A DNA stretch of 16,520 bases from Promethearchaeati archaeon. Its GTDB lineage: Archaea; Asgardarchaeota; Heimdallarchaeia; JABLTI01. This document shows, one piece after another, positions 3 to 16,311 of this stretch. The stretch lies in NCBI GenBank assembly GCA_013166835.1, contig JABLTI010000062.1:1-16520 (forward strand). The letters are read 5' to 3'. The notes beneath the pieces were generated by a model that was not told where the DNA came from, did not search any database, and saw only the letters and a program-made list of their open reading frames with translations. A program made the position numbers and the translations under genes. How positions within the stretch are numbered: the first letter of the stretch is position 1; each line of letters begins with the position of its first letter.

Positions 3-950
3 GATGAATTCGTTGATCTTCTAATGCTTTGTTTTGGTGATGGATTGGAACGTGATCGAGTCAATCTTGCTGAAGTTGGAAAATTAATGAAAAAGATTAA
101 CAAACCAATTTATCGTTTAATTATGAAATTAATGAATGTTAAAATGATAAATTATGGCATCAAACGTGATGGTAAGCTTATTAGTGCTTTAACTTTATCC
201 ATTGATAGGGATGCAGCTACAATTGGTAATGTAATGACACATCCAGACTACCGTCGACAAGGATTAGCTAAGAGATTATTCCAAAAAGCTGTTTTTGATG
301 GTGAAAAATTCGGTTTAGATAAAATATCTTTAGATGTGCATGCTCAAAATGCTGGAGCAATAAAATTATATGAAAATGAAGGATTTACGGAATTTTATCA
401 CACTGGAAAATTAAAACTTGATATTTCACAAAATAAAATTTCAGCTGATGATTCTGTGGTTTTAAATGAAGTTAGTGAAATTGATTTCGAATTTTTTGAT
501 AATCTCTTGGATGTTTGCTATCCTCAAAAGATGCTTGAAAATCGTAATAGAAACAAGATGGCAAAAGATTATATTCCTAATCGATTTATACGATTCTTCA
601 TTGAGAAAGCTGCAGGACAAAAAATGTATTTTTACTCAATCAGTAGAAAGGATGATACCAAAACAAGAGGATATCTTAGTGCATCAACTTCTAGGTTAGA
701 GAATGGATTGAGGATCGCATCACCCCTTGTTAGGAATGAGGATATTGATTTAGTATTACCAGCTCTTTCGGAATTAATTACACGAATAAAAATGGATACA
801 AACTATTTGAATTTTAATTTGTCTATGCACAGAAAAGATCTTATTGATAAATTACTTGAAGTTGGCTTCGAGTTATCTGAGGAATCCCTATACATGAATA
901 TTAAATTTGATGAAGAAAATACTAGACATGGAGAAACTAAAAATGAATGA
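3..950 (+). CDS. GNAT family N-acetyltransferase, probably tandem-GNAT (5' end likely outside the window)
   Basis: Acetyl-CoA motif A VMTHPDYRRQGLAKRL and motif B NAGAIKLYENEGF. A degenerate second domain ends in LLEVGF. The frame is open from position 3 (DEFVDLL-M24), so the start probably lies upstream of the window. Confidence 0.85.
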   Translation, partial: DEFVDLLMLCFGDGLERDRVNLAEVGKLMKKINKPIYRLIMKLMNVKMINYGIKRDGKLISALTLSIDRDAATIGNVMTHPDYRRQGLAKRLFQKAVFDGEKFGLDKISLDVHAQNAGAIKLYENEGFTEFYHTGKLKLDISQNKISADDSVVLNEVSEIDFEFFDNLLDVCYPQKMLENRNRNKMAKDYIPNRFIRFFIEKAAGQKMYFYSISRKDDTKTRGYLSASTSRLENGLRIASPLVRNEDIDLVLPALSELITRIKMDTNYLNFNLSMHRKDLIDKLLEVGFELSEESLYMNIKFDEENTRHGETKNE

Positions 951-1521
951 TATACCAGATGAAGAAAAAATGCAAATAGCTGAAGCTCATAAACCAATAT
1001 TAGAACCAATAGAAGAAAAAGGATTTATTCTCGATATTGGTGGAGGAGGAGAAGGAATAATTGGTCAATTAATGGGAAATCAAGTAATTTCTATTGATAA
1101 GAATAAGAGAGAACTTGAAGAAGCACCAAGCGATAATCTAAAAATCGTTATGGATGCGACAGATCTACAGTTTTTAGATGAAACTTTTGGAACTGCTGCT
1201 TCTTTTTATACACTTATGTATATGGATAGCGAAACAAAACAGAAAACAATAAACGAAGTTTATCGTGTACTGAAAACCGGTGGTAAATTCTTGGTTTGGG
1301 ATTCTGAGATTCCAGGTGAGAAACCTAATGATAAAGTAGAATTTTTTGTGGTTCCCCTTCAAGTCAAATTACCAGAAAAAGAAATTGGAACTGGGTATGG
1401 TGTTCGATTTATTTTTCAAGATAAGAAATTGATTTCTGAGATGTGCAAGAAAGCAGGTTTTGAATTACATCTAAAATCAGAAAAAGATTCCATGTTATAT
1501 TTTGAATTTATTAAAAAATAA
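943..1521 (+). CDS. Class I SAM-dependent methyltransferase (Methyltransf_11-like)
   Basis: Motif I ILDIGGGGEG, ISID, MDATDLQFLDETF and EVYRVLKTGGKF. ATG 943 is preceded by GGAG (930-933) and overlaps the GNAT stop. Alternative starts are 907, 910 and 928. Confidence 0.85.
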   Translation: MNDIPDEEKMQIAEAHKPILEPIEEKGFILDIGGGGEGIIGQLMGNQVISIDKNKRELEEAPSDNLKIVMDATDLQFLDETFGTAASFYTLMYMDSETKQKTINEVYRVLKTGGKFLVWDSEIPGEKPNDKVEFFVVPLQVKLPEKEIGTGYGVRFIFQDKKLISEMCKKAGFELHLKSEKDSMLYFEFIKK

Positions 1522-1557
1522 AGAGAAAAATTATCCTTTTGGATAATTCTTTTTCTT
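1522..1557. terminator. Putative bidirectional terminator hairpin between convergent genes
   Basis: AATTATCC (1529-1536), TTTT loop, GGATAATT (1541-1548), flanked by an A-rich run on the left and a T-rich run on the right. Confidence 0.6.
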
Positions 1558-2298
1558 TTATTCTATTTTTTTGCCCATAGAAGCCATGTATATTACGAAT
1601 TGTTCTTCTCCATCTATTCCGAGTATTTCATTCATTTGCTCATCATAGAAAGCTGCTATTGCACAACAACCAGAGTCAATGTTTTCAACTGCGAGGTACA
1701 GATTCTGTGCTACATGACCAATATCTAAGTGAAGATAGCGATAACTCCTTTGTCCATAACGCCAAGCAATTCTGTAGGGAATAGCAACCCAAATGAATGT
1801 AACAGCTGCTGCTTTAACCATTTTCTGACCATAAGCACCTTCTATTACTCGATCACCAATATCTTCAGCAAGATCGATTTCTACAAGTTTATGCTTGAGT
1901 GATAAATACCGATAAATCCCTGGTTTCAAACCTTCAACATTGTTAATTAAAAGATAGGTTTCAAATGCATGTCTTGCTCCAGCAGAGGGTACGGTTCTTT
2001 TGGTGTATATTTCGCTGATTTCTTTAACGCCTTGTGTTGCCCATAAAAGCCAGGCTAATTCATTTAGAGTTAATGCTTTTTCACTATATTTTCGAACACT
2101 TACTCTATCTTCTATTGCTTTTCTTAAATCCAAACTAGGGACATCAATTTTATCAGGAATAGGTAAATCGATTATTTTCTTTTTCTCGTCATATGCTGTT
2201 TGCAGTGGAGGTTTTTCAATTCCTTTTCTCTGATCAGATTCTTCCAAATACTTGTATTTGGTTTTTTCCATAAATTCTTGACCAATACCTTTTTTCAT
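1558..2298 (-). CDS. SagB/ThcOx-family FMN-dependent dehydrogenase (nitroreductase fold)
   Basis: AIEDRVSVRKYS, KRTVPSAGARHAFETY, RYGQRSYRYLHLDIGHVAQNLYL and GCCAIAAF. ATG 2298 chosen; TTG 2307 is an alternative start. Confidence 0.88.
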   Translation of the reverse strand: MKKGIGQEFMEKTKYKYLEESDQRKGIEKPPLQTAYDEKKKIIDLPIPDKIDVPSLDLRKAIEDRVSVRKYSEKALTLNELAWLLWATQGVKEISEIYTKRTVPSAGARHAFETYLLINNVEGLKPGIYRYLSLKHKLVEIDLAEDIGDRVIEGAYGQKMVKAAAVTFIWVAIPYRIAWRYGQRSYRYLHLDIGHVAQNLYLAVENIDSGCCAIAAFYDEQMNEILGIDGEEQFVIYMASMGKKIE

Positions 2299-2412
2299 CT
2301 TCAACAACTCATTATTATTTAGTTACTTCTAATATTCTATTAAATATAAGTTCTAATCTTAAGTTTCTAAATTCTAGAGTAAATTTAAGTATTTATCATC
2401 TAATTATTATCT

Positions 2413-2958: not shown

Positions 2959-3801
2959 TTATTCCCCATATGCTAAATCTTCATATTCAGCTGCTTTATC
3001 ATAATCTTCGGCTTCTTCGTATGCTGAAGCTAAATTATGTAACGCTTCAAAATATTTTGGTTCAATTTCTACTGCAGTTTTGAAGCACTCAATTGCTGCG
3101 GAGAGGTCTCCTATCATTGCATAAACCACTCCCAGATTATTATATGCTAATTGATAGAATGGATTTAACTCAATTGATCTTTCGAAATGCTCTATTGCTT
3201 CTTCGAATTCCTTCTTATCTACATGGATTAATCCTAGAAAATTATATGGTTCATAATAAAGTGAATCAATATCAAGTGCTTCTCTGAAGAAATCTGCTGC
3301 CTTATCTTGCTCGTTTAATTGCATATAGGCTCTTCCTAAGGTATTATACGCTATTTGATATCTTGAGTTGATAACTAAAGCTCTTTGACAAACGTCAATT
3401 GCTTCTTCTATATCTCCTCTTTCGAGATAGCTGATTCCAAGATTAACCATTGCTTCGTAGTAATCTGGTTTAATATCAAGGACTTCAAGAAAACAAGCTA
3501 TAGCCATAGTGTTGTCGCCAATTTTTGTGTAATTGGTACCTAAATTGACTAACGCTTCCATATAGTCGGGATTCAATTCTAAAGCTCTCTTATAACAAGC
3601 AATTCCTTTATCCAATTGATTTTGATAATCATAAGCAACTCCTAGGAGAAACCAAGCACGTGGATTGTCTATTTGCAGATCAGTTGCTTTTTGGAAGAAT
3701 TCTATCGCGTTTTCAAATTTCCCACTTTGTATACCTGCAACTAGTCCCATCTCGAGTAATTCTTCAGGATTATCTATTTCTCTGATACCCCGTTCTGCCA
3801 T
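2959..3801 (-). CDS. Tetratricopeptide repeat protein (about 8 TPRs), acidic
   Basis: 34-aa periodic repeats of the form A(W/Y/L)xxLGxxY...A...(Y/F)xxAL.(L/I).P run through the whole protein, with no other domain visible. Confidence 0.92.
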   Translation of the reverse strand: MAERGIREIDNPEELLEMGLVAGIQSGKFENAIEFFQKATDLQIDNPRAWFLLGVAYDYQNQLDKGIACYKRALELNPDYMEALVNLGTNYTKIGDNTMAIACFLEVLDIKPDYYEAMVNLGISYLERGDIEEAIDVCQRALVINSRYQIAYNTLGRAYMQLNEQDKAADFFREALDIDSLYYEPYNFLGLIHVDKKEFEEAIEHFERSIELNPFYQLAYNNLGVVYAMIGDLSAAIECFKTAVEIEPKYFEALHNLASAYEEAEDYDKAAEYEDLAYGE

Positions 3802-4007: not shown

Positions 4008-4418
4008 TTAGTGTATATGGAACAATCTCATGTGTTCTATTTTCATGCATTTATCCATTACAAAAGGGATTCCATGCTTTTCTGCAATTTCCTTTGCTTT
4101 TTCATTTACTATTCCTAATTGTAACCAGATAAGTTTCGGTTTGAGTTTGACAGCTTCTTCTACAACTTTCGGAGTATCTTCACTAGGTCTAAAGATATCC
4201 ACGATATCGACTTGCGCTGGAATTTTATCCAGGCTTGGATAGACTTCTTCTTCTAGAATAGTTTCCGCCATAGGATTAACAGGAATTATTGTATAACCAT
4301 GTTCTTTCAGATATTTTGGTATTGAATGTGCCGCTTTGCTTGGATTTCTAGAAGCCCCAACAACAGCGATGACTTTGCTTTTCTCGAGTATCTTGACTAT
4401 CTCTGAAGTAATTGACAT
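4008..4418 (-). CDS. CoA-binding protein (YccU/CoA_binding_2 family)
   Basis: IAVVGASRNPSK, GYTIIPVNP, VDIVDIFRPS, IWLQLGI and VMDKCMKIEH. Confidence 0.92.
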   Translation of the reverse strand: MSITSEIVKILEKSKVIAVVGASRNPSKAAHSIPKYLKEHGYTIIPVNPMAETILEEEVYPSLDKIPAQVDIVDIFRPSEDTPKVVEEAVKLKPKLIWLQLGIVNEKAKEIAEKHGIPFVMDKCMKIEHMRLFHIH

Positions 4419-4493: not shown

Positions 4494-5636
4494 TCAAAGA
4501 AATATTTCATATTCACCGATGCCAAAATCCTCATTTGTTTGCCAATAGTCATCGATAGAATCCAACATTGCTAATTTTGAAGCACCCACATAGGGCATTA
4601 AATCAGTTTGTGCTGTGGATAGGATCCTAATATCGTTTTTACATTCCGGAAGTAAAATTACTAATTCATCCTCAAGTCTCTTCTTTAATCCCAAGAATTT
4701 TGCTCCCCCACCTGTTAGGCAAATGTTGTTACTAAATTCCTTCCATAATCTTATGTTCAAACTTTTGATAACATTTGCAATCGCTTGGGATAAGTTAATC
4801 TCTTTCATATTGTATTTGTTACCTTCGCAATCACTTCTTGGACATAAGGTAACTTTCTCTGAGAAGAATTTTTTGTAAAAGAAAAGCTCAGGTAGTTTCC
4901 ACCTTTCTGAACCAAGATTGAATGTATATTTATCAATATAGTATGTTATTGGTCTCTCATCAATTTCTTTCATGTTCTGATTATATGACCTTACAAAACA
5001 ATGGTTTTCTTTTATGTCACGAATAAACATGGAGTCTATTGGTCCTTCGAAGCCTTGTTTCTGTAACCAAGACCCTAATTGTAATGTTAACTCGAGGCCA
5101 CCAAATGATATTTGAGCTATTTGTTCTTCTAGTATTGCTGCTTGATAAATTGGAACGATTCTAATTTGTGAAAATCCAATATCTACCACAATTGCAGTTA
5201 ATTTCCTCATCACTGGTAAATAGGCCACTAATGAAAGGAAAGGGTCTGAGATAACAGCAACCTTTTCTGCTAATAATTCCTCATGAAAATACTCGAGAAC
5301 GAGATCTCTAAATGGACTATCAGTTAGTACTGCTGTTGGTAAACTAATGAGTATAGGATTAACGATAGGATCAATCTTTAATTTCTTAACACTTGCTAGC
5401 CAGTATGCTTTAATGAGTTCTTCATTTGTAGTTTGACTACCCTCAATTGGGAATCGTCTTATCCTCACATTCAAATCAGTGCTTTGTTCCGGGAAAACAA
5501 ATCGAGGATATTTCTCTCCCCCAAAACCAATTTTCGTGCTTGAAGCTCCATGAATAATAAGAGCAGGAGTTAAATCTAGTTCTTCAACTTCTGATTCAGC
5601 TTCAACTGCTATCTTACTTTTATCCAGTTTTTTCAT
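4494..5636 (-). CDS. Divergent actin-related protein (eukaryotic actin/ARP family)
   Basis: Colinear actin motifs: KIGFGGEKYPRFVFP (actin KAGFAGDDAPRAVFP), FPIE (YPIE), IVVDIG..IVPIY (IVMDSG..TVPIY), GGLELT (AGRDLT), IRDIKENHCFV (VRDIKEKLCYV), LGSERWKLPELFF (IGNERFRCPEALF), LTGGGAKFLGLKKRLEDEL (LSGGTTMYPGIADRMQKEI) and YVGASKLAML (WIGGSILASL). Start is ATG 5636 or TTG 5651. Confidence 0.9.
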   Translation of the reverse strand: MKKLDKSKIAVEAESEVEELDLTPALIIHGASSTKIGFGGEKYPRFVFPEQSTDLNVRIRRFPIEGSQTTNEELIKAYWLASVKKLKIDPIVNPILISLPTAVLTDSPFRDLVLEYFHEELLAEKVAVISDPFLSLVAYLPVMRKLTAIVVDIGFSQIRIVPIYQAAILEEQIAQISFGGLELTLQLGSWLQKQGFEGPIDSMFIRDIKENHCFVRSYNQNMKEIDERPITYYIDKYTFNLGSERWKLPELFFYKKFFSEKVTLCPRSDCEGNKYNMKEINLSQAIANVIKSLNIRLWKEFSNNICLTGGGAKFLGLKKRLEDELVILLPECKNDIRILSTAQTDLMPYVGASKLAMLDSIDDYWQTNEDFGIGEYEIFL

Positions 5637-5679
5637 CCTTTTGGTTAACAAATGAGACGACCTTAATCAAACGATAATA

Positions 5680-5691
5680 TAGTAATTACTA
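5680..5691. promoter_or_regulatory. Perfect 12-bp palindrome, candidate operator upstream of the ARP gene
   Basis: TAGTAATTACTA is its own reverse complement and lies about 30-45 bp upstream of the ARP start codon. Confidence 0.4.
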
Positions 5692-5902
5692 CTTTTTCAA
5701 TATTATAATGATGCGGTTTGAATAAACTCTCACAGTCATATGGATTTTACATTGGAAAATATATGGATTATATTTCATCAATCGAAATAAAGTTTTTTAA
5801 TCGCTTAATTTATCAATGGTTTTGATTGAAACATCATCATACAATCCTAGAAACAGGTCGTATCATTATCGTGGTAGTTAGTATTTCAAGCTGTGAGAAT
5901 TA

Positions 5903-7888
5903 ATGCTAGAACTAGAGAAAATTGACTTTAAGAAAATGGGTTTTCGTGCAGGCATAGAAGTGCATCACCAAATAAAAACAAAGAGAAAACTCTTCTGTAA
6001 TTGCTCTCCTATCCTTTGTGATGGAGAACCAGATTATTTATTTGAACGATACTTCAGACCAGTGTTAGGGGAAATGGGCGATTTTGACGCAGGCATGCTT
6101 ATTGAGTTTGAGAAAGGATATCGGGTAATTTATCATGCATATGAGGCTTCTGTTTGCAATTATGAACAAGATGAGCAACCCCCTTTCTGGCCCGATTATG
6201 AAGGAATTTATATGGGGTATGAGTTAGCTCATTGGCTTAATTTTTCATCATTAGTAGATGAAGTTGTTGTCTCAAGAAAGCAATATCTAGATGGATCAAT
6301 CACAACAGGTTTCCAAAGAACAATGATTGTTGCTCGAGATGGATGGGTACCTGTTAATGGGAAGAAAATTAAAATCACAAATCTTACAGTTGAGGAAGAC
6401 GCTGCAAGAAAAATCAAAACTGAAAATTTCGGACGAACAGTCTATTACAATCTTGACCGTTTAGGGATACCATTAGTTGAGGTAATATCTGATCACGAAG
6501 ATTGTGATAATCCTGATGACTTTAAGAAGTTGGCAGAATATATAGGGTTAACTTTACGATTATGCGGTATTGCTCAAAGAGGTCTTGGCTCTGTTCGACA
6601 AGACATTAATTTTAGTATCAAAGGTGGAGATAGAGTTGAGATTAAAGGAGTACAAGATCTCGACACCTTTGTTGATCTTGCTCGTAGAGAAGTAGCTCGA
6701 CAAGATATGCTCATAAAGATTGCAGGGATGTTAAAGGAAAAGGGATTAACAAAAGAAGACTTAGAACATACTTATATTGATTTAACAGAGAACTTTGATC
6801 CAAAAATCATTCCTAAAAACTACATCCTGATGGGAATTCGCATCCCTAAACTTGGCGGAATTTATGGGATTGAAATACAACCTGGCAAAGATTTCGGTCA
6901 AGATATCATCGAAAAAACAGAACTGATTTCAGGAATTCCTAGAAGCTATCTTTTCCATTCTGATGAAATAAACCAGAAAGCACTAAGGAGAGTCCAAGAA
7001 AAGAAGATGAGTTTAAAGAGTGAGGATTATCAGAAGAATTTCTTTTTCCAAAATTTGACGATTGATTTAAACAAGAAAATTAGAAAAATACTAAATCTGA
7101 AGAAAGATGATGCATACTTTTTAGCTCTTGGTCCACAAAAGTGGGTTATCCATGCATTAAAGAAAATAATTGAAAGAACAAAAATGGCATTTGATGGCGT
7201 TCCACAAGAGACCAGAAGATTTCTACCTGATAATAATACAGAATTTTTACGAGTAATTCATGGTCAAGATCGTCTTTATCCTGACACTGATACACCACCG
7301 ATTGATATGGATATGGAAAAAATACAAAAACTAAAAGAAAAGGTTGGAGCAAGACCTTGGGAGATTGTAAGCGAATTTGATGAAAAGTATGGATTCTCTT
7401 ATGAACAAACTGTTAAGCTAATTCGACATAATAGAATTAATGATATTAGAAAATTAATTGAAGAACATAATTTTGATCCAAATCGTTGCTATGTTTTATT
7501 GGAAGAAACAATTCTAGCATTAACTCGAGAAGGACTAATGACAAAATCACTTTCTATGAAAAAACTAATCGAAGTTCTAAAAGGTGCACATTCAGGTGAT
7601 TTTGATTTTAATCAAATCCAAGCGATTTTACGATTAATCATTAGTAATCCAAAGAAGAATCTGAAGCAAATCCTCTCTGATCTAAAAATCAAAAAAATAA
7701 CAGATAAAGATATTGAGCAACTTTATGATGAATCACTAAATGAACTAGATAAGCATCCAAGAAAAAATGATTTCACAAAAGAAGAACTTGCTGAAAAGGT
7801 TACTGGAAATATTATGAGAAGAATAAATGGAGGATTTTCTGGCAAGAGGATCTTTGAAATTGTTCTTTCAAAGTTGGAGGGTAAATAA
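5903..7888 (+). CDS. gatE: Glu-tRNA(Gln) amidotransferase subunit E
   Basis: GIEVHHQ..KLFCNC, RKQYLDGSITTGFQRT, EEDAAR, LDRLGIPLVE, RGLGSVRQDINFSIKGGDRVEIKGVQ, the HSDE insertion domain, GVPQETR and RLYPDTD. Adjacent to gatD. Confidence 0.95.
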   Translation: MLELEKIDFKKMGFRAGIEVHHQIKTKRKLFCNCSPILCDGEPDYLFERYFRPVLGEMGDFDAGMLIEFEKGYRVIYHAYEASVCNYEQDEQPPFWPDYEGIYMGYELAHWLNFSSLVDEVVVSRKQYLDGSITTGFQRTMIVARDGWVPVNGKKIKITNLTVEEDAARKIKTENFGRTVYYNLDRLGIPLVEVISDHEDCDNPDDFKKLAEYIGLTLRLCGIAQRGLGSVRQDINFSIKGGDRVEIKGVQDLDTFVDLARREVARQDMLIKIAGMLKEKGLTKEDLEHTYIDLTENFDPKIIPKNYILMGIRIPKLGGIYGIEIQPGKDFGQDIIEKTELISGIPRSYLFHSDEINQKALRRVQEKKMSLKSEDYQKNFFFQNLTIDLNKKIRKILNLKKDDAYFLALGPQKWVIHALKKIIERTKMAFDGVPQETRRFLPDNNTEFLRVIHGQDRLYPDTDTPPIDMDMEKIQKLKEKVGARPWEIVSEFDEKYGFSYEQTVKLIRHNRINDIRKLIEEHNFDPNRCYVLLEETILALTREGLMTKSLSMKKLIEVLKGAHSGDFDFNQIQAILRLIISNPKKNLKQILSDLKIKKITDKDIEQLYDESLNELDKHPRKNDFTKEELAEKVTGNIMRRINGGFSGKRIFEIVLSKLEGK

Positions 7889-7907
7889 CTCTAGGGATGT
7901 GTGCAAT

Positions 7908-9356
7908 ATGAGTAAGAAGAAAACACCTAAGGAAACAACCAAACAAAAAAGAGATCCTATTGGTTACAAAGGAGAACTCCGGAAACGACTCGAGACAGAA
8001 GGAATCGGTGTTTGGAGTGAAGTAACTGTAAAGAAGGGAGATGCCGTTTATGAAGGCGTTATACTCCCAAGAAGTGATCACACATCCGAAGGATACTTGG
8101 TGCTTAAAGTTGATACTGGTTACAACATTGGTGTGAAAATCACCCCAGATACTACCATTGAGGAATATGGCTACAAAGAAGGAAAATACAAACTTCCTGA
8201 TATTAGTGTAAAATTCAAGGATGATTTACCCAATGTTACTCTTCTAGGAACAGGTGGTACTGTTGCTTCAAGATTAGATTATCGTACTGGAGCTGTTTTA
8301 CCAGCTTTTACACCAGAAGAATTATTCAGCGCAGTTCCTGAATTAATTGATATTTGTAATCTCACACCTAAGAAGATTTATTCATTATTATCTGAAAACT
8401 TCCAACCTGAATACTGGGCAAAAACAGCTGAAGCTGTTATGAAAGAATTCGAAAGTGGAGCTGAAGGGGTAATTATTGGCCACGGTACAGACACCATGAG
8501 TTTTACTGGTTCCGCTTTATCCTTCATGTTCCAGAATCAAGCTGCACCTATTGTTATTGTAGGTTCACAGAGAAGTAGTGATAGACCTTCAAGTGATGGT
8601 CCTCTTAACATAATTAATGCCAGCACTATTGCAGGTTACGTTGATCTTGCTGAAACAGTTATCTGTATGCATGGTGGAACAAGTGATTCCTATAATTTAA
8701 TTCATAGAGGAACTCGAGTTAGAAAGATGCATTCCAGCAGAAGAGATGCTTTCAGAACTATAAGTGATATACCTTTGGGGATAATTGATGCTAATCAAAA
8801 AGTGACTTTCTTGAAGGATGATGTTAAGAGAAGAGGAGATATGGCTGATATGTGGGTTGACACAAAAATCGATCCTAAAGTCGCTATGCTTTACTTTTAT
8901 CCCGGAATGGATGAGGATATGCTTCACTCTGTAATTGACAATAAATATCATGGAGTAGTTTTCATAAGCACTGGATTAGGTCATGTAAATACCGATATGT
9001 ACCCTGCTCTAGAGCGTGCACAAGAAGAAGAGATACCAATCTGCATTGTTGTAGAACCTTTGTGGGGTTTTACTAATCTACGAGTTTATGAAACTGGAAG
9101 AGATATGCTTGCTCGAGGTATTTTTGAAGGAGCAAATATGTTGCCATGTGCTGCATATGCAAAAATGATTTGGACTCTTGGTCATACGCGAGATGTTAAA
9201 GAAGTGGAGAAAATAATGACCACTAATATTGCTGGAGAGATAACTGATAGAGAGTTAAACAGGGCTTATATGATCATGCAAGGTGTTGAACCTGGTTTAG
9301 ATGAAATGCTCAAACAAGTTGATAAAAATCCCAGAGAACATCGATGGGGTATTTGA
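7908..9356 (+). CDS. gatD: Glu-tRNA(Gln) amidotransferase subunit D (asparaginase-like glutaminase)
   Basis: N-terminal GYNIG domain, GTGGTVASRLDYRTGAV, HGTDTM, GSQRSSDRPSSD, RKMHSSRRDAF and GLGHV. ATG 7908 follows the gatE stop; the ORF-track start at 7827 overlaps gatE. Confidence 0.96.
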   Translation: MSKKKTPKETTKQKRDPIGYKGELRKRLETEGIGVWSEVTVKKGDAVYEGVILPRSDHTSEGYLVLKVDTGYNIGVKITPDTTIEEYGYKEGKYKLPDISVKFKDDLPNVTLLGTGGTVASRLDYRTGAVLPAFTPEELFSAVPELIDICNLTPKKIYSLLSENFQPEYWAKTAEAVMKEFESGAEGVIIGHGTDTMSFTGSALSFMFQNQAAPIVIVGSQRSSDRPSSDGPLNIINASTIAGYVDLAETVICMHGGTSDSYNLIHRGTRVRKMHSSRRDAFRTISDIPLGIIDANQKVTFLKDDVKRRGDMADMWVDTKIDPKVAMLYFYPGMDEDMLHSVIDNKYHGVVFISTGLGHVNTDMYPALERAQEEEIPICIVVEPLWGFTNLRVYETGRDMLARGIFEGANMLPCAAYAKMIWTLGHTRDVKEVEKIMTTNIAGEITDRELNRAYMIMQGVEPGLDEMLKQVDKNPREHRWGI

Positions 9357-9394: not shown

Positions 9395-10072
9395 CTATTC
9401 CAAATAAGGTCTAGCATCAGCATCTTCACCATTTTCTTTAGCAACTTTACGCCAATGATTTGTGTTTATTTTTGCAAATGGTTTCTTTAGAATCTTCCAA
9501 TAAAACATTCCAGGAAAAGTTCTCGGAGCCATATCTGGTAAATCTGTTCCTGATATAATAGCATCTGCTAAATTATCCAAGATACCTCTCATGATATTTG
9601 CTGTTTTTCCAAGTTCAGGCATTAGTTTCCCATATCTTCCTTGGAACATTTCGCCTACTTCGACAGCAAGACTTCCTGCCCAATTGAAACCAACAGTCTT
9701 TGCAAATTTATGATATAGTGGAATTGATACGGCAGTAATTTGAACTACTTCCCCAAAACCACTATTAACTATTGGTAAGAATTTTATTTCTTCCAAATTC
9801 ATTTTTTTTGCAGCAATAAGTTCCATTAGCTTGATAACAATATACGGTTGGCAATCATCATAAAGTGGAGCTATTAAAACAACCATATTGGTTTCTTCAA
9901 TTTCTTTGAGCATCTGTGAAGTTTTTTCTTCACTAGCGAGTTGACTTCTTACAATGAGAGTAGTAGTTTCAAGACCTTTTTCCTTTAACTTTTCTTCTAT
10001 ATATTTTCCAAAACTAAATGAAGTGCTCTTCTTACCTCTTGGGCTTCCAATTAAAAACAAAACTTTAGTCAT
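9395..10072 (-). CDS. NAD(P)H-dependent FMN reductase / flavodoxin-fold protein
   Basis: FLIGSPRGKKSTS FMN-phosphate loop, APLYDD and IVNSGFGE. The start overlaps the upstream gene's stop (ATGA). Confidence 0.8.
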   Translation of the reverse strand: MTKVLFLIGSPRGKKSTSFSFGKYIEEKLKEKGLETTTLIVRSQLASEEKTSQMLKEIEETNMVVLIAPLYDDCQPYIVIKLMELIAAKKMNLEEIKFLPIVNSGFGEVVQITAVSIPLYHKFAKTVGFNWAGSLAVEVGEMFQGRYGKLMPELGKTANIMRGILDNLADAIISGTDLPDMAPRTFPGMFYWKILKKPFAKINTNHWRKVAKENGEDADARPYLE

Positions 10073-10644
10073 TTTTTCAACTCCATTTCATTTATTATTT
10101 GTTTTATTTTCTCTTGCTTTATCGTTTCATCTTTTTGAAAAATATGAGTTTTATAAACGGGAGGATAAAAATTCAAACTATGACGATAAATGAGTGTCTT
10201 AAACAATTGTTCTTCCTCTTCATCCGAATTCTCAGAAATTCCTATAGCAAGAAGAGATGGATATTTTTCATATCTTTTAATGTGATGCGATTCTCCATCT
10301 ATTATTTGAACACCAGGATGCAAAGTGCCAATAAGACGTTCAATAATCTTCTTTAATTCAGAAGAATACCCACCAAAGGTTATTGGTGTTAAAAATACTA
10401 ATAGATCACAATTAACAATCTTCTTCTTAATCGCTTCACCTTCGTCACCTTTTACTCCGGTACATATTCCAGGGGTAGTATCCCAGCATTTGAAACAACC
10501 TGTACAACTAATTATTTTGATTTCATTCATAACAAAAGAATCAGTTTTCATATTTCGATATTTTAATTCTTGTTCCAAAGCTGCTTGGATTGGCGCTAAT
10601 TTTTGTTGATGTTTTAGACTTCCATTTAGAATGACAACATTCAA
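10069..10644 (-). CDS. Iron-sulfur flavoprotein-like flavodoxin family protein
   Basis: VILNGS, a Cx2Cx2Cx7C cluster (CTGCFKCWDTTPGIC) and TPITFGGYSSELKKIIERL. TTG start. Confidence 0.82.
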   Translation of the reverse strand: MNVVILNGSLKHQQKLAPIQAALEQELKYRNMKTDSFVMNEIKIISCTGCFKCWDTTPGICTGVKGDEGEAIKKKIVNCDLLVFLTPITFGGYSSELKKIIERLIGTLHPGVQIIDGESHHIKRYEKYPSLLAIGISENSDEEEEQLFKTLIYRHSLNFYPPVYKTHIFQKDETIKQEKIKQIINEMELKK

Positions 10645-10881: not shown

Positions 10882-11364
10882 ATGGCATTAATAAGTGAAG
10901 AAATGAATAAAGCCCTCAATAATCAAATTAAAGAGGAACTAGAATCCGGATACCTTTATCTAGGTATGTCTTATTGGTTTGAAGAACGTTCATTCCACAA
11001 CCTCGCACATTGGTATTATGCGCAAGCACAAGAAGAATATGTCCATGCAAAGAAATTCATGGATTACATTATTGAAACTGGTGGAACTGTGGAATTACAA
11101 GCTCTTAAAAAACCAAAAGCTGATTGGAAGAATTTCAAGGAAATTTTAGAAGCTGGGTTAGCTCACGAGAAATTCATTACAAGTAAAATCGAAGAGTTAT
11201 GGAAACTTATGGAGAAATTGGGAGAATTACAACCACGATCATTACTAACTTGGTTCATTGACGAACAAATCGAAGAAGAAGCAAACGCACAAGAACTCAT
11301 TGATACTCATGAAGGTTACAAGAACGATCAATTATTCGATCATCATACTCACAGAGCAGAATAA
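10882..11364 (+). CDS. ftnA: Non-heme ferritin (FtnA type)
   Basis: LNNQIKEELESGYLYLGM, QAQEEYVHAKKF, AHEKFIT and LTWFIDEQIEEE. The ferroxidase-centre Glu/His/Tyr/Gln residues are present. Confidence 0.93.
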   Translation: MALISEEMNKALNNQIKEELESGYLYLGMSYWFEERSFHNLAHWYYAQAQEEYVHAKKFMDYIIETGGTVELQALKKPKADWKNFKEILEAGLAHEKFITSKIEELWKLMEKLGELQPRSLLTWFIDEQIEEEANAQELIDTHEGYKNDQLFDHHTHRAE

Positions 11365-11379
11365 TAAATTAAAATAATA

Positions 11380-11435
11380 AATGGAATTTGACTTACTCAA
11401 ATTTCATTGATTTCTTTTCTTTTTTCTTTCTTTTC
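11380..11435 (+). terminator. Putative terminator after ferritin
   Basis: 12-bp stem AATGGAATTTGA / TCAAATTTCATT (one G-U pair) with a CTTAC loop, followed by a long T-rich pyrimidine tract. Confidence 0.65.
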
Positions 11436-11469
11436 AAAGAAAGATTTATCTTTGGATACTTGTTTGTTT

Positions 11470-14388
11470 ATGACTATGAAGATCTCTAATGACTTTACAT
11501 TTGAATTCTACAAAGAATACTCCAACATTAGAGAGCTCCTTATTGATTCATTCAACGATAAAATCTCACATTATCAGAAGCTAGTTTACTCACAACAGAT
11601 TGTTTTCAGTCTGTTTGTAATTGGTTTTCTTGTGGATAAAAAAATAATAAGAAAAGAGAATGGTTCTAGCTTAAACCGAGATGAATTTTTTTCTGAATTG
11701 CAAAAAAGTAATTCCTTCCTTATTGAATTACTTGAAGTATCCACTTTTTGTAGAACGTTTGCATCAGATAGGATTTTCACTATTTCAAATCAGAAGTACT
11801 TCATTCCTTTCTTCAATGCAGATTTCTTTATTCTTCTATCAGAAGTAGATAGTAGAACAATCTCTATCTCGAGTAATTCTTTAGAACATGTGCTTAGTTT
11901 TATTTCGAAAATCTCAAAAAATCCCGAGTTTAGCTTTGATATCTTTGGTAGTATATTCGAACAAGATTTAGTACTTCTTGAAACTCTAAGAAAAGATGAA
12001 GAATCTGTTGATCAACAAATCAAAATACTTTCTACACTCAGTGAAAGAAGAAAGAAAGGAATTTTCTATACTCCAAAAACAGTTACAGAGTATATCTGTA
12101 GAAAAGCTGTTCATTCATATCTCTTAGAGCATTTTAATTTAGTTGATGTGAAACTTGAAGTAGCTATTTCAAAAATGAATGAATCTGAACTCATAGCATT
12201 CTACGAATTTATTTGTGAGATTAAAATCCTTGATCCTGCTTGTGGTGCAGGGAATTTCTTACTTGAAACTTGTGAATTACTTCTAAATCTTAGAAAGATG
12301 GTCTTACAGAAATTATCTGGAAAAATAGATCCTCTTAAGTTAAAGTATGAAATTTTAAGGTCAAATATATTTGGCGTAGATATACAAGAAATTGCCATAA
12401 ATATAACAACACTTCGATTATGGTTATGGCTACTAGAAGATTATGAAGTAATTCCAAATAAAACAAAAAAGAATCTTCTACCTGATTTAATTCCAAATCT
12501 ACAAATTGGAAATACTCTGATTGGTTTTAGCTCTGAAAAAATCATACCAATAGATTCTGATTATAAAATTAAGCCGGAAATACAGGACATAATTATTGAA
12601 GCTCAAAAGGTATTATTGGAAATACCTCGAGAGGATGAAAGCAACGATATTCTAGATGCATTTTCCAATATTGTTGAAACACTAAAAACCAGTTCTGTTA
12701 AGCAAAAGATTTTTACAAATCAAGATTTACTCGAGGCAAATTTTGGGAATCTTCAAACACAATTAATAGCAAACAATGTTGATTTTAATGTTTATTCTAA
12801 GCTTAAGACCCTCTACAATCAAATTAGAAAATTGCTTTATAACATCATCAACGAAAAATACTTGACCTTTTTACAAAACAAAATCAAAAAATCTTCAATA
12901 AAACTACGGGATTTGGAGCTTCTAAATCCATTTCATTGGAGAGTTGATTTTGCTGAAATAATTTATGAGGGAGGATTTGATGTTATCATTGGGAATCCTC
13001 CTTATCTTGAGAATAAGAAAATAAGGAATTTAGTTGAAAAAGAATTGTTGAAAGCGCAATATAATACAGCTTACAAATTGTATGATCTCTCTATTCTCTT
13101 TATTGAGCGTTCACATATGTTACTCAAGGAGAAAGGTTACTTTTCTTTCATAATTACAAATAAATTCATCTCAACTGACTATGGAATTAAAATAAGAAAA
13201 AAGATTTTGAAAGAAACAAGATTAAAAGAAATCATAGATGTTTCTTATCTTCCAATATTCAAAGACGCAGCAACATATCCGATTATTATAACTTTCAGTA
13301 AAGCTTCAACAACTCTAGATGTAAAAAACTTAGAGAATGAATTTCTGATTATCCCAAAATTGGATAAATTAAAACTTCTGAAAACTGAAAGGTTCAAGAA
13401 AACTAAAGCAAAACAAAGCAATTACTACAACTTACCAAAACATATTTTTGATCTCACAGGTAATTTTCCCATAATTAATGAAATTATTAATTCTCCAAAA
13501 TCTGTTAAATTATCAGATCTTGGAAGATTCGCTTATCGTATTTTAGGTTTCACTGATTGGGAGAAATCTCTTGAATTAATTTCCACAAAAAGGATATCAA
13601 AAGATGATTTGAAATTTATAGGGACAACCAATGTATTTCAGTATTCAATAGATTGGAAAAAAATCATCAAACTTAGCGGTAAAAGATTAGAGAGAACTTA
13701 TTTACTTTATACTAAGAAACACGAAGCTGCTTGGGAGACTTTCCAAAAACAAAAGATCCTGATAAAAGAGATAAGTAAAAAATTGACAGCCAGCTTCGAT
13801 CCAGGCATATTTGCTAATGCAACTGGTATCTATATGTTTTTGCCGAAAGACGAGTGTAATCTGAAATTACTTACAATATTGCTGAATTCTAAATTACTGG
13901 ATTTCATTTTTTCAACCTTGTTTGGTTCAACACACATGGCAGGAGGATATCTACGTTTTAATGGAAGCTATTTGAAAGAACTTCCCATTATAATTCCAAA
14001 AGATGATTGGCTACAAGATCTCATAGCAAATCTTTGTGACTATTTATCATTTTTACAACAGCTAGTTATAGATAATGACATCAGAATCAAGCTACTTGAG
14101 TTCTTTTCTAAAATTACTAATTATTTAGTTTTGGAAGTTTATTTCGAGAGTGAATTTAAGAAATCAATTTTTAGTGAAATTAGGAATCTAATAAAGCCTA
14201 TTGATTTTGATAAATGGTTCAAACTCTACTTTAACAATAAGAAGAAGAATGATTTAGAGCATCTTACAAGAGAAATACTACAGGTTATAACTTCAGTAAA
14301 TAAAATAATTGTAGAAAAAACTAATGTTGAAGAAATTATAGATAATCTCCACAAGAATAAAAAATTAGCTCTCATTTTTCATTCATAG
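11470..14388 (+). CDS. N6-adenine DNA methyltransferase, gamma class (Eco57I/TaqI-like) with C-terminal target-recognition domain
   Basis: Motif X GIFYTP, motif I ILDPACGAGNFL, FGVDI, FHWRVDFAEI, motif IV GFDVIIGNPPY, DLSILFIE, IFKDAATYP and a TaqI_C-like LLNSKLL...YLKELPI. ATG 11470 or 11476 is preferred because the 11407 extension translates the terminator T-tract. Confidence 0.9.
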   Translation: MTMKISNDFTFEFYKEYSNIRELLIDSFNDKISHYQKLVYSQQIVFSLFVIGFLVDKKIIRKENGSSLNRDEFFSELQKSNSFLIELLEVSTFCRTFASDRIFTISNQKYFIPFFNADFFILLSEVDSRTISISSNSLEHVLSFISKISKNPEFSFDIFGSIFEQDLVLLETLRKDEESVDQQIKILSTLSERRKKGIFYTPKTVTEYICRKAVHSYLLEHFNLVDVKLEVAISKMNESELIAFYEFICEIKILDPACGAGNFLLETCELLLNLRKMVLQKLSGKIDPLKLKYEILRSNIFGVDIQEIAINITTLRLWLWLLEDYEVIPNKTKKNLLPDLIPNLQIGNTLIGFSSEKIIPIDSDYKIKPEIQDIIIEAQKVLLEIPREDESNDILDAFSNIVETLKTSSVKQKIFTNQDLLEANFGNLQTQLIANNVDFNVYSKLKTLYNQIRKLLYNIINEKYLTFLQNKIKKSSIKLRDLELLNPFHWRVDFAEIIYEGGFDVIIGNPPYLENKKIRNLVEKELLKAQYNTAYKLYDLSILFIERSHMLLKEKGYFSFIITNKFISTDYGIKIRKKILKETRLKEIIDVSYLPIFKDAATYPIIITFSKASTTLDVKNLENEFLIIPKLDKLKLLKTERFKKTKAKQSNYYNLPKHIFDLTGNFPIINEIINSPKSVKLSDLGRFAYRILGFTDWEKSLELISTKRISKDDLKFIGTTNVFQYSIDWKKIIKLSGKRLERTYLLYTKKHEAAWETFQKQKILIKEISKKLTASFDPGIFANATGIYMFLPKDECNLKLLTILLNSKLLDFIFSTLFGSTHMAGGYLRFNGSYLKELPIIIPKDDWLQDLIANLCDYLSFLQQLVIDNDIRIKLLEFFSKITNYLVLEVYFESEFKKSIFSEIRNLIKPIDFDKWFKLYFNNKKKNDLEHLTREILQVITSVNKIIVEKTNVEEIIDNLHKNKKLALIFHS

Positions 14389-15067
14389 CATAATCTAGAA
14401 CTGAGAGAGCATGGATTGTTGTTGTGTCAAACACAGGTATTTTACAATCTTCTTGTTTAATTAGCAAAGGAATTTCTGTACAACCTAAAATTACCCCTTC
14501 AGCTCCTTTTTCATGTAATCGATAAATGATTTCGAGGTATTTCTCTTGAGAGGTGTCATTTAAGATATGAAAAGTTAATTCTTTGTAAATAATTCTAGAG
14601 ATTGTTTCTTGATCTTCTGGAGTTGGAGTAATTACTTCGAGGTCATATTTCTCAAATGCTTTCTGATAATAATCACCCTGCATAGTAAATTTAGTACCAA
14701 TCAAACCAACTTTTTTCAAATTGTGCTTCTTAATTTCCTTTGCTACTGCATCCATTATGCTAATCATTGGTTTGGATACTTTTACTTCTAATTCATTAAA
14801 TACTATATGAGGAGTGTTTGTAGCCATAATAATTACTTCTGCTTTTGCAGCAATTAAATTGGTAGCGGATAAATAGAGTTCTTCCAAAACTTTATCCCAT
14901 TCATCTGCTGCAAACCAATCCGTTAATTTCTGTAAATCTAAACTATCAATAACGAGATTCGGTGACGATGAATCACCAATGATTTTATTGTAACTTCTTG
15001 CAATGATTTTATAATATTCAAAAGTGGATTCAACACTTAAGCCACCGATAATTCCAATCTTCTTCAT
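14372..15067 (-). CDS. Aspartate/glutamate racemase family (RacX/YgeA-like)
   Basis: IGIIGGLSVESTFEYY, ATNTPH, VGLIGTKFTM, VILGCTEIPLL and FDTT.IHA. ATG 15067 chosen; GTG 15076 is an alternative start. Confidence 0.9.
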   Translation of the reverse strand: MKKIGIIGGLSVESTFEYYKIIARSYNKIIGDSSSPNLVIDSLDLQKLTDWFAADEWDKVLEELYLSATNLIAAKAEVIIMATNTPHIVFNELEVKVSKPMISIMDAVAKEIKKHNLKKVGLIGTKFTMQGDYYQKAFEKYDLEVITPTPEDQETISRIIYKELTFHILNDTSQEKYLEIIYRLHEKGAEGVILGCTEIPLLIKQEDCKIPVFDTTTIHALSVLDYAMNEK

Positions 15068-15076
15068 TTTAATCAC

Positions 15077-15685
15077 TTATTGAATCTCTTCACCGTTATA
15101 TTTAACGAGTGTCCATTTTTTATCTTTCTGAGATTGAATTATCTCATTTACTGCACAGTTAATGAACCAAGCTTGATTTTTTGGTAAAATATTCAATGTT
15201 GATTGCAAAATATGATAGAGAGACCCACCGTGAGCAACAACTAAAATTGTGGAATCATTTTCTCCTGAAGCGATTATTTCATTAAAAATATCTTTTATTC
15301 TATGCTTGAATTCATTAGTTGTTTCTCCATTAGGAACTCTAATATCGTGATCATCCCAACAAGAATTCAGAAAGGCATTTTCTTCTTCGGTTAGCTCCTT
15401 AGAATTCTTTCCTTCAAAATCACCTAAATACATCTCTCTTAAACGCTCATCAAAAACAATATCTTTTACTCCTAGAACTTTTGTGATTATTTTTGCTGTC
15501 TCTTTTGCTCGAGATAAATCCGATGAATATACAGAATCAAAGACTATTTTGCTTTCCAAGAGTTTTTCTCCAGTAGTTTTTGCTTGTTCTCTTCCAATAT
15601 CAGAGAGAGAAGAGTTCATGTGCCCCTGAATTATATTTTCCTTATTCGCTTCGCTTTGTCCGTGTCTTATTAGAAAAATTCTCAT
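15077..15685 (-). CDS. Histidine phosphatase superfamily protein (PGM/CobC-like), copy 2
   Basis: LIRHGQSEAN, SSDLSRAKETA, LREMYLGDFEG, PNGET and VVAHGG. Confidence 0.92.
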   Translation of the reverse strand: MRIFLIRHGQSEANKENIIQGHMNSSLSDIGREQAKTTGEKLLESKIVFDSVYSSDLSRAKETAKIITKVLGVKDIVFDERLREMYLGDFEGKNSKELTEEENAFLNSCWDDHDIRVPNGETTNEFKHRIKDIFNEIIASGENDSTILVVAHGGSLYHILQSTLNILPKNQAWFINCAVNEIIQSQKDKKWTLVKYNGEEIQ

Positions 15686-15699
15686 ATTGTATTCTCCAT

Positions 15700-16311
15700 T
15701 TAGATTTTTTTATTGTTAAACATAGTAATTTTCCAAGTATCTTCTGCAGATTCTCTTTCTATAATATTCAGCATACAACTCCCAAACCATTCCTCAAGTT
15801 TCTCTGGTAGAAGATTCAGAACTCTAATCAATATATGATATAATGTCCCACCATGTCCTACGATAAGAATAATGGAATTTTCTTGGTTATTTTCTATTAT
15901 TTCTAGGAATGCTTCCTTCATTCTTTTTGTCATATCTATATTACTTTCACCATCTGGGACTTTTACTTCTTTAGCATCTCGAATTGTAGAGTCAAGGAAT
16001 TCACTCTCTTCTTCTGTTAAGTCATCCGAGTATTTCCCTTCGAAAACTCCTGCGTCTCCTTCTCTTAATCGTTTATCGAAAACAATATTCTTAAAACCAA
16101 TTTCACTGCAAATGATTTTTACTGTTTCAGCTGCTCTAACTATATCAGATGCATAAACAACATCAAACTTTATCCCTTTATTCAGAAATTCTTGTCCTAA
16201 GGATTTGGCTTGCTCCTTACCTAAATCAGTTAGAGGGTAATCTCCGTGACCTGCAATAATTCTATGAAGGTTAGCTTCACTTTGTCCATGTCTGACAAGA
16301 TAAAATTTCAT
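15700..16311 (-). CDS. Histidine phosphatase superfamily protein (PGM/CobC-like), copy 1
   Basis: LVRHGQSEAN, ASDIVRAAETV, LREGDAGVFEG, PDGES and IVGHGG. SD-like GAGG upstream of the ATG. Confidence 0.92.
   Translation of the reverse strand: MKFYLVRHGQSEANLHRIIAGHGDYPLTDLGKEQAKSLGQEFLNKGIKFDVVYASDIVRAAETVKIICSEIGFKNIVFDKRLREGDAGVFEGKYSDDLTEEESEFLDSTIRDAKEVKVPDGESNIDMTKRMKEAFLEIIENNQENSIILIVGHGGTLYHILIRVLNLLPEKLEEWFGSCMLNIIERESAEDTWKITMFNNKKI

Follow-up and report, generated by a model that had tools for sequence, protein, structure and literature searches.

The window analyzed here, a 16.5-kb stretch of contig JABLTI010000062.1 from an Asgard archaeon, encodes on its minus strand a highly divergent actin-related protein (ARP; positions 4494–5651). 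The ARP and its homologs form a new, well-defined subfamily of Asgard actin-related proteins, which is found in one genus, evolves fast, carries a fixed degenerate nucleotide site and has no D-loop. Judged from the sequence, it is tentatively read, with slightly less than even confidence, as a lineage-specific ARP that probably neither hydrolyzes ATP nor builds F-actin-type filaments and that would act as an accessory factor.

Family assignment and fold

The ARP matches the Pfam Actin profile PF00022 with 120.1 bits (cut-off 27; E = 1.1e-34), its residues 63–371 aligning with profile positions 64–397 of 410, and all 32 homologs described below bear the same domain in a precomputed table. Its score against MreB_Mbl (PF06723) is 20.8 bits, under the cut-off of 27, and its scores against NCBIfam models are 24.2 for crenactin (cut-off 630), 37.8 for MamK (400), 18.9 for BeeR (530), and 15.6 for MreB (293). 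Among PDB sequences searched with phmmer, an entry named ‘HC1 actin’ ranks first (E = 1.2e-24), followed by eukaryotic actins (about 1e-21) and Arp1 (3e-19); the family profile returns the same order, with 138 bits for HC1 actin (9wc4), 122 for eukaryotic actins, and 118 for Arp1. Going by its name, this entry is presumed to be the actin of strain HC1, which bioRxiv 10.1101/2025.02.26.640444 describes as a cultured member of the Hodarchaeales that possesses a lokiactin cytoskeleton.

An AlphaFold2 model built from the 32-sequence alignment has a predicted local distance difference test score (pLDDT) of 75.5 and a predicted template modeling score of 0.80, with weak regions at residues 1–19, 31–53, and 346–351. 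The top Foldseek matches to this model are actins only, with template modeling scores of 0.73–0.76 at 22–24% identity. A second structure search, made independently of Foldseek with VIA-align over 48,161 chains, also placed actin first (Z 31.3, root-mean-square deviation 2.8, 325 residues aligned). It is followed by an axonemal actin-like protein (30.9), Arp3 (30.1), Arp4 (29.5), other nuclear Arps (27–29), the dynactin chain 5adx_J (26.3), which we take to be Arp11, the entry giving only its title, crenactin (25.4), and Arp8 (24.1). Lower still are MreB (21.1–19.5), MamK (18.7), Hsp70 (18.7), FtsA (18.0), ParM (about 15), and sugar kinases of the hexokinase type (about 13.5). A protein-language-model search pointed to an ‘Actin-related protein 10’ cluster at 0.96, which is treated as a lead only. 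In the predicted structure, the ARP has the full four-subdomain actin fold and is nearer to actin and the Arps than to MreB, ParM, Hsp70, or sugar kinases. A preliminary description of the window had assigned the ARP to the eukaryote-type actin family, had proposed the Pfam search as a check, and had stated that the assignment would fall if MreB, Hsp70, or sugar kinases matched best; profile and structure rankings both uphold it.

The source genome (3.56 Mb, 260 contigs, 85% complete, estimated contamination 6.8%) contains five PF00022 matches, namely the canonical actin (lokiactin), the ARP, and three actin-like proteins. The lokiactin (379 amino acids, 448 bits) is encoded on a separate contig, C176, and the ARP, with 99 bits in the same six-frame search, is 26% identical to it and 22–25% identical to eukaryotic actins. 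The ARP is a paralog distinct from the canonical lokiactin of the genome, as the preliminary description had supposed; its low identity to eukaryotic actin, its restriction to one genus, and the separate lokiactin all set it apart from that protein. Beside these two, the genome holds three paralogous archaeal actin-like proteins of the Ta0583 type on contigs C11, C200, and C138.

Nucleotide site and subdomain 2

The family was aligned with lokiactins and a eukaryotic actin, and the residues of its 32 members were then set in a census beside those of 178 further sequences of the actin family, made up of 147 representatives, 28 actins and ARPs from Asgard archaea, the actin of the same genome, P0034, and P0035. 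Positions are named by the conventional actin numbering, and residues of the ARP itself are counted in its 380-residue ATG form.

ASKHA ATPases use the phosphate-1 aspartate, D11 in actin, to hold Mg-ATP, and of all changes in the family its loss is the hardest to reconcile with an active ATPase of this class. The position is Ile, Val, or Ala in 32 of 32 family members, whereas the other sequences have Asp in 153, Glu in 7, and a gap in 12 cases, i.e., an acidic residue in 160 of the 166 ungapped rows. In the same loop, N12 is replaced by His in every member and S14 by Ala in 31 of 32; H29, G30, T34, and K35 of the ARP are invariant. The Q137 position is Asp throughout the family (11 of the 178 others), and after the segment SDPFLSL and the hinge helix follows a 4-residue insertion in a loop that lines the barbed-end cleft. 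In the phosphate-2 loop, D157 has become Phe or Leu, Phe being outside the six commonest residues of the other sequences; G158 has become Ser, and H161 is Arg or Lys in all 32, which leaves a bulky residue in place of the Asp and no second Gly. R335 and K336 are also lost. Retained in 32 of 32 are K18, D154, G156, and the equivalents of K213, E214, G301, G302, and F306, and the motifs RDIKE (residues 206–210) and LTGGGAKF make up the retained part of the nucleotide pocket. The family thus lacks D11, D-x-G-x-G, and the water-activating Q137/H161 pair of an actin-type ATPase, and keeps the adenosine motif with K213/E214.

Nucleotide binding would probably be weak or static and without actin-like hydrolysis, because the phosphate-1 Asp, the Gln/His pair, and the second phosphate loop are changed while the adenosine pocket and K18 are kept. 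The retention of the adenosine pocket suggests that the site was remodeled rather than erased.

The D-loop is the element through which F-actin makes its main longitudinal contact. The subdomain-2 segment between FP and FPIEG or YPIEHG is 13 residues long in every one of the 32 members, whereas the 178 others have a median of 36 and a length of at most 15 residues in 15 rows, several of them truncated; neither a D-loop nor a full subdomain 2 is present in any family sequence. The plug region carries about 8–9 residues more than that of actin. Since the D-loop and most of subdomain 2 are gone, the cleft bears an insertion, and the plug is enlarged, longitudinal contacts of the F-actin type are probably impossible. 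The family alignment has 127 columns with conservation of at least 90%, which take in much of subdomains 3 and 4, and 50 of them share their residue with columns conserved in actin. The hydrophobic residues of the barbed-end cleft are partly conserved.

Distribution and rate of evolution

A search of 5.8 billion proteins returned 32 homologs with 48–91% identity and lengths of about 369–392 amino acids, apart from one fragment of 271. Those with names are labeled Candidatus Heimdallarchaeota or Asgard group and are annotated as ‘hypothetical protein’ or ‘actin-related protein’; the next match, a fungal actin and the nearest eukaryotic sequence, is only 23% identical. In a profile search of 1.84 billion representatives at 50% identity, one full-length sequence (649 bits) and one fragment were recovered. 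The next score, 187 bits, is inflated, as it sums two domain scores of tandem-actin gene models. P0037, P0039, P0042, P0043, and P0056 (Anaeramoeba species and an EukProt entry) are such double-actin models of 740–820 amino acids, and these apparent eukaryotic relatives, whose domain scores add up, give no grounds for assuming horizontal transfer.

Family-level matches in the whole genomes of 41 relatives, searched with the single protein, occur only in the genus of the window. Likewise, among 301 Asgard genomes (70 genera, 30 families), many of them incomplete, so that absence means not found among those searched, the family profile gives 624–674 bits only in this genus (g1) and at most 130 bits everywhere else. 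Nine of the 11 genomes of the genus hold a full-length ARP, and the copies in G001 and G009 are cut by a contig end; the G009 fragment was considered as a pseudogene and rejected on that ground. G011, the single genome available for the sister genus and 75% complete, yielded the canonical actin and no ARP. The literature searched, which did not extend to supplements listing clade members, gives no account of this family or of an Asgard ARP without the phosphate-1 Asp, and the family may sit, perhaps unnamed, in a published tree. The preliminary description had proposed an uncharacterized subfamily in an archaeal, Asgard-like genome. Both points hold, in that the family is one 50%-identity cluster among the 1.84 billion representatives with no description in that literature, and the homolog labels, together with GatE/GatD synteny in eight other genomes of the genus, identify the source as Asgard (Heimdallarchaeia).

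Nei–Gojobori ratios of nonsynonymous to synonymous substitution rates (dN/dS) between close orthologs are 0.048–0.067 at dS values of 0.26–0.47, for frames taken from stop to stop and so including a few upstream codons. The ARP is under purifying selection in the genomes of the genus that were examined. It evolves much faster than the actin of the genus and clearly faster than the housekeeping protein GatE, whose gene lies next to it. Identities to the window's proteins, with GatE taken over its first about 410 amino acids, are for ARP, canonical actin, and GatE, respectively, 95, 100, and 95.6% in G007; 70, 98.4, and 83.7% in G004; 68, 97.9, and 84.4% in G005; 58, 97.6, and 76.5% in G006; and 49, 98.2, and 78.1% in G010. 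Over the same genome pairs, the ranges are 49–95% for the ARP, 97.6–100% for actin, and 76–96% for GatE.

Phylogeny and origin

A FastTree phylogeny of 165 rows comprised 147 of 148 representatives (P0171 has no full-length domain and was left out), 12 family members, the genome's own actin, two named or near actins, and 3 archaeal actin-like proteins as the outgroup. The family is monophyletic (100), and its stem measures 1.33 substitutions per site. The sister of the family in this tree, P0073 (Shimodaira–Hasegawa-like support 94), was flagged as a long-branch join, and the pairing was dismissed as an effect of long-branch attraction; P0073 retains DNGG and DSGY, its subdomain 2 is long, it has none of the derived features of the family, and it separates from the family under a mixture model. 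For the mixture-model trees, calculated with posterior mean site frequencies (PMSF) on 87 and 51 rows, Asgard proteins were added from 28 of 30 loci, leaving out L016 (internal stop) and L046 (a rearranged frame of 582 amino acids); the 87-row tree used 43 hand-picked representative identifiers of the 147, one of which doubles the P0034 row. The preliminary description had proposed a phylogeny with lokiactins, Asgard ARPs, and eukaryotic Arp1–10; the trees cover the Asgard actins and ARPs together with unnamed actin-family representatives, and the eukaryotic Arps are covered by the structural rankings. In none of these trees does the family fall within an already characterized clade, an outcome that the preliminary description had said would remove the novelty.

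In both PMSF trees, the family has support of 99–100 and a stem of 1.26–1.42 substitutions per site, long enough for long-branch artefacts to be expected. One of the two trees joins the family with L053 (Shimodaira–Hasegawa-like approximate likelihood ratio test 86), and the other does not; the join is weak and unites two long branches. L053 itself (G008:C82:36500-38700, open reading frame 270–1577, plus strand), from a sister genome within the genus, is a further, very divergent actin-family protein of 435 amino acids with 169 bits to Pfam Actin, and tblastn did not recover it from the window's genome.

The most economical origin would be a duplication of lokiactin in the ancestor of the genus, followed by rapid divergence, and it is the distribution in a single genus that makes a recent duplicate the more economical choice. 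Against such an origin, both PMSF trees place the family outside the clade of lokiactin and eukaryotic actin-like sequences (Shimodaira–Hasegawa-like approximate likelihood ratio test 93 and 89), in a basal comb that it shares, without resolution, with further groups of Asgard ARPs; duplication from the lineage's own lokiactin is therefore not rejected rather than demonstrated. When the family is constrained to group with Heimdall-class lokiactins in the 51-row set, the tree is equally good, with a log likelihood 0.07 above that of the free tree, and the approximately unbiased (AU) test gives p = 0.505. The top PDB match of the family profile, an Asgard actin (138 bits), also speaks for an origin from lokiactin.

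The basal position in the unconstrained trees, outside lokiactin and actin, would also suit a vertically inherited relic of an ancient Asgard ARP clade that was lost elsewhere, for instance asgardactins 04–05 near Arp10, which would bear on the origin of eukaryotic Arps. The ‘Actin-related protein 10’ lead from the language model agrees with this, as does the grouping of asgardactins 04–05 with ARP10 in the accessible part of PMC8850707. A relic would, however, require very many losses, given family-level matches in one of 70 genera; its tree position depends on a stem prone to long-branch artefacts; the AU test leaves the lokiactin-derived origin unrejected; and the match to the dynactin chain 5adx_J falls below that to actin (Z 26.3 against 31.3). 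We regard a relic as distinctly improbable; the trees and the AU test do not discriminate between an ARP clade of ancient origin and a lokiactin duplicate that is recent and evolves fast. Because a recent origin from the lineage's own lokiactin is not rejected, the ARP says little about the origin of eukaryotic Arps.

Proposed function

The ARP would most likely be a non-polymerizing accessory subunit. In the manner of eukaryotic Arps, it may use its hydrophobic barbed-end cleft, which is partly conserved, to bind lokiactin (a monomer or the end of a filament) or some other partner.

Several observations weigh against a protein without hydrolysis and without filaments. Deletion of the D-loop does not by itself exclude filaments, because MreB and ParM polymerize without a eukaryote-type D-loop. 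Several other ASKHA ATPases have a catalytic acidic residue where actin has Q137, so that the change to Asp is not necessarily inactivating, and the invariant H29 beside the lost aspartate could substitute for it. Ser for G158 and Arg for H161 also occur in 35 and 20, respectively, of the 178 other sequences. Furthermore, confidence in the model is lowest at the phosphate-1 hairpin and subdomain 2 (pLDDT < 50 at residues 31–53).

Together with Asp131, H29 could take the place of the lost residues in a self-polymerizing cytomotive filament of a new type, comparable to those of crenactin, ParM, or MreB. The whole fold is kept, with its 127 conserved columns spanning much of subdomains 3 and 4, and ATP might still be bound with the help of the acidic Q137 position, K18, the retained D154/G156, and the adenosine motif; short subdomain-2 segments, moreover, are shared with the 15 other actin-family sequences counted above. 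The phosphate-1 Asp is nevertheless gone from all 32 members at a position that is acidic in nearly all others, and the phosphate-2 loop has a bulky Phe or Leu for Asp and no second Gly. Identities of 49–95%, beside a coexisting canonical actin conserved at 97.6–100%, are also atypical for a filament former with many self-contacts. On balance, such a filament appears unlikely.

The degenerate ATPase motifs, the Z scores of 27–29.5 to Arp4, Arp7, and Arp6-type nuclear Arps, and a neighborhood in which no cytoskeletal gene is conserved could also belong to a scaffold or regulatory subunit outside the cytoskeleton, resembling nuclear Arps in chromatin remodelers and not acting directly on lokiactin. 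We hold little expectation of such a role, since the gene context suggests no partner complex, its only conserved neighbor being the housekeeping gene gatE, and the partly conserved barbed-end cleft fits actin-type ligands equally well.

The accessory-subunit reading has a more specific form, which we consider a long shot: a non-catalytic ARP invented from lokiactin would bind the ends of lokiactin filaments through its barbed-end cleft, as a pointed-end cap or a nucleation template. If true, no earlier case of an ARP-type protein regulating an actin filament would precede it in prokaryotes, and it would be an independent archaeal replay of the step that gave eukaryotes Arp2/3 and Arp11.

Locus and gene neighborhood

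The ARP frame is open from a TTG at 5651 over 385 codons to the stop, and an in-frame alternative ATG at 5636 would give 380 amino acids. The TTG is a plausible start because the close homologs P0002–P0004 begin with M-L-x-x aligned to it and AAGGT lies about 10 nt upstream. The motifs quoted in the preliminary description all recur in the translation (YPRFVFP, IVPIYQ, RDIKENHCFV, GSERWKLPE, GGGAKFLGLKKRLEDEL, GASKLA), and so does the basic-then-acidic N-terminal extension KKLDKSK...EAESEVEELD, whose sequence differs among family members and for which disorder is predicted. With 32 homologs and a dN/dS of 0.05–0.07 between close orthologs, the gene is far beyond chance. The stretch occurs as DNA in metagenome runs from marine and other sediments, with at least half of its words in 7 runs, one of which may be the source sample; no RNA run is among the sequencing runs listed as containing it. 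Coordinates are collected in Table 1.

Table 1. Features of the ARP gene, its neighbors, and the actin-like proteins of the same genome (positions in the window, except where a locus is named).
Feature	Position	Strand	Evidence or remark
ARP coding sequence	4494–5651	−	stop 4494–4496; Pfam Actin 120 bits; 32 homologs; dN/dS
N-terminal extension, basic then acidic, about 23–28 residues before P24	5568–5651	−	family alignment; pLDDT about 40 for residues 1–19
Remodeled phosphate-1 loop IIHGASSTK (residues 27–35); actin xDNGSGxxK	5532–5558	−	alignment, census
Truncated subdomain 2, no D-loop, 13 residues	5451–5492	−	census; low pLDDT at residues 31–53
SDPFLSL (residues 130–136); Q137 position an invariant Asp	5229–5249	−	alignment, census
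Remodeled phosphate-2 loop VDIGFSQIR (residues 151–159); actin LDSGDGVTH	5160–5186	−	alignment, census
Enlarged plug region (residues 262–280), invariant P266-R267-S268 and G272	4797–4853	−	alignment
Adenosine motif LTGGGAKF (residues 307–314), conserved	4695–4718	−	alignment, census
ARP–gatE divergent spacer, 251 bp, AT-rich	5652–5902		head-to-head layout in 9/9 complete loci
gatE	5903–7888	+	NF003107, 491 bits (cut-off 456)
gatD	7827–9356	+	NF003217, 498 bits (cut-off 310)
CoA_binding_2 protein	4008–4418	−	Pfam; downstream of ARP
TPR protein	2959–3801	−	Pfam; downstream of ARP
Archaeal actin-like proteins of the source genome	L003:955-2019; L004:964-2037; L005:1231-2298		ALP_N + MreB-like_C

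The head-to-head arrangement with gatE and gatD, reported in the preliminary description, is confirmed by models for both genes and is conserved in all nine complete loci, from nine genomes of the genus; gatE is the only neighbor kept across the whole family. The spacer presumably contains both promoters, and the conserved adjacency implies no functional link between the ARP and gatE. In G012 and G016, which lie outside the genus, the 1.5 kb upstream of gatE contain no ARP, and the corresponding region of G011 is uninformative because its contig starts there. The open reading frame of gatD overlaps gatE by 62 bp (7827–7888); as GatD models match from residue 64–74 of 509, translation of gatD may begin at a later codon, and the overlap would then be an artefact of frame calling.

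Downstream of the ARP, the CoA_binding_2 and TPR genes are common only to the closer orthologs and G009. Convergent ABC ATPase genes take their place in the two most distant genomes, G008 and G010, and the two were for this reason rejected as operon or functional partners. The AT-rich gap of 75 bp that follows the ARP stop codon points to a separate promoter for the CoA_binding_2 gene. The TPR protein scores 167 bits against the model of the magnetosome protein MamA (cut-off 200); a MamK/MamA pairing with the ARP, whose best NCBIfam match is MamK (38 bits against 400), was judged a generic coincidence of TPR and actin folds.

The estimated contamination of the genome bin (6.8%) raises the question of an artefact, whether a chimeric contig, a contaminating eukaryotic actin fragment, or a decaying pseudogene. 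The synteny kept across nine genomes removes the concern over a chimeric contig, which the preliminary description had itself raised, and the order TPR, CoA-binding, ARP recurs in a tenth genome. The frame is intact in all loci with a dN/dS of 0.05–0.07, the guanine-plus-cytosine content of the gene matches the remainder of the window (about 0.30–0.38 overall), and the nearest eukaryotic sequence is just 23% identical. An artefact is effectively refuted.

Other genes in the window

A single-chain restriction-modification methyltransferase of the Eco57I/MmeI type (type IIG-like; 993 amino acids) is encoded at 11407–14388 (plus strand). It has Eco57I, MmeI_Mtase, N6_Mtase, and TaqI_C specificity domains, and it weakly resembles BREX PglX. 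Tandem histidine-phosphatase paralogs (His_Phos_1, CobC/GpmB-like) lie at 15077–15685 and 15700–16311 (both minus strand) and adjoin an Asp/Glu racemase at 14372–15076. The nitroreductase-fold protein at 1558–2307 (minus strand) matches the SagB-family peptide dehydrogenase model TIGR03605 with 135.5 bits (cut-off 78.4), which hints at a peptide-maturation enzyme. Two adjacent, overlapping frames of the flavodoxin-fold/FMN-reductase type (9395–10072 and 10069–10644, minus strand) stand opposite a ferritin gene at 10882–11364.

Comparison with known systems

Crenactin, MreB, MamK, and archaeal actin-like proteins related to Ta0583 share the ASKHA actin-like fold with the ARP. Nevertheless, the ARP lies far below the family cut-offs of crenactin, MamK, and MreB, with structural Z scores of 25.4, 18.7, and 21–19.5, respectively.

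The known system closest to the ARP is lokiactin (asgardactin 01), with which the ARP has in common the Pfam family, the four-subdomain fold, RDIKE, the GG adenosine motif, VPIY, K18, and D154/G156; lokiactin is present in the same genome, and an Asgard actin (9wc4, ‘HC1 actin’) is the best PDB match of the family profile. In contrast to lokiactin, the ARP has lost the phosphate-1 Asp, the equivalents of Q137 and H161, and the D-loop, and the two are 26% identical. Lokiactin occurs in all Asgard lineages and is conserved at 97.6–100% within the genus, whereas the ARP is found in one genus at 49–95%. For LokiActin, the accessible part of PMC12050087 gives 58% identity to eukaryotic actin.

Non-lokiactin Asgard ARPs are widely invoked in support of a cytoskeleton that is regulated and eukaryote-like. 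Asgard genomes combine lokiactin with ARPs in a pattern of complex gain and loss, as stated in the available portion of PMC9834061, and Asgard actins have been divided into five asgardactin clades, of which only clade 01 is universal and 04–05 go with ARP10 (PMC8850707 and its preprint, in the parts accessible). Other Asgard ARPs, such as asgardactins 02–05 and the three ARPs of L. ossiferum (PMC9834061, accessible part), are likewise divergent, patchy in distribution, and found beside lokiactin. The literature searched, as far as its text is accessible, assigns no function to any non-lokiactin Asgard ARP, and the accessible parts of PMC12395588, PMC13716822, PMC13247210, and PMC12050087 contain nothing specific to the ARP family. 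Apart from the weak L053 join, the family joins none of the four sampled Asgard ARP groups (L042-44/47, L048/49/52, L050/51, and L053). A generic actin hidden Markov model gives 207–403 bits for other Asgard ARPs against 199–227 for the family. With 32 sequences, fixed derived residues, and a conserved genomic position, the family is a clean and well-sampled example, in which an Asgard lineage has turned an actin paralog into a protein that no longer resembles an ATP-hydrolyzing polymer subunit.

Among eukaryotic Arps, Arp10/Arp11 of dynactin, Arp7/Arp9, and Arp4 are non-polymerizing subunits with an actin fold, altered ATP-site residues, and an altered subdomain 2. Such Arps, with degenerate nucleotide sites or capping roles, reach Z scores of 26–29.5 to the ARP, below actin itself, and no dynactin-like or remodeler-like partner genes were found in the ARP neighborhood. 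Compared with them, the ARP is archaeal and restricted to one genus, and its sequence affinity is shown at the family level only. Restricted as it is to a single genus, and perhaps of recent origin by duplication, the family alone is uninformative about the ancestry of eukaryotic Arp1–10. If the ARP binds lokiactin, the making of ARPs from actin would be an ongoing archaeal habit rather than an invention of eukaryotes alone, and the ARP and the 97.6–100% conserved actin of the same genome would constitute a tractable biochemical pair.

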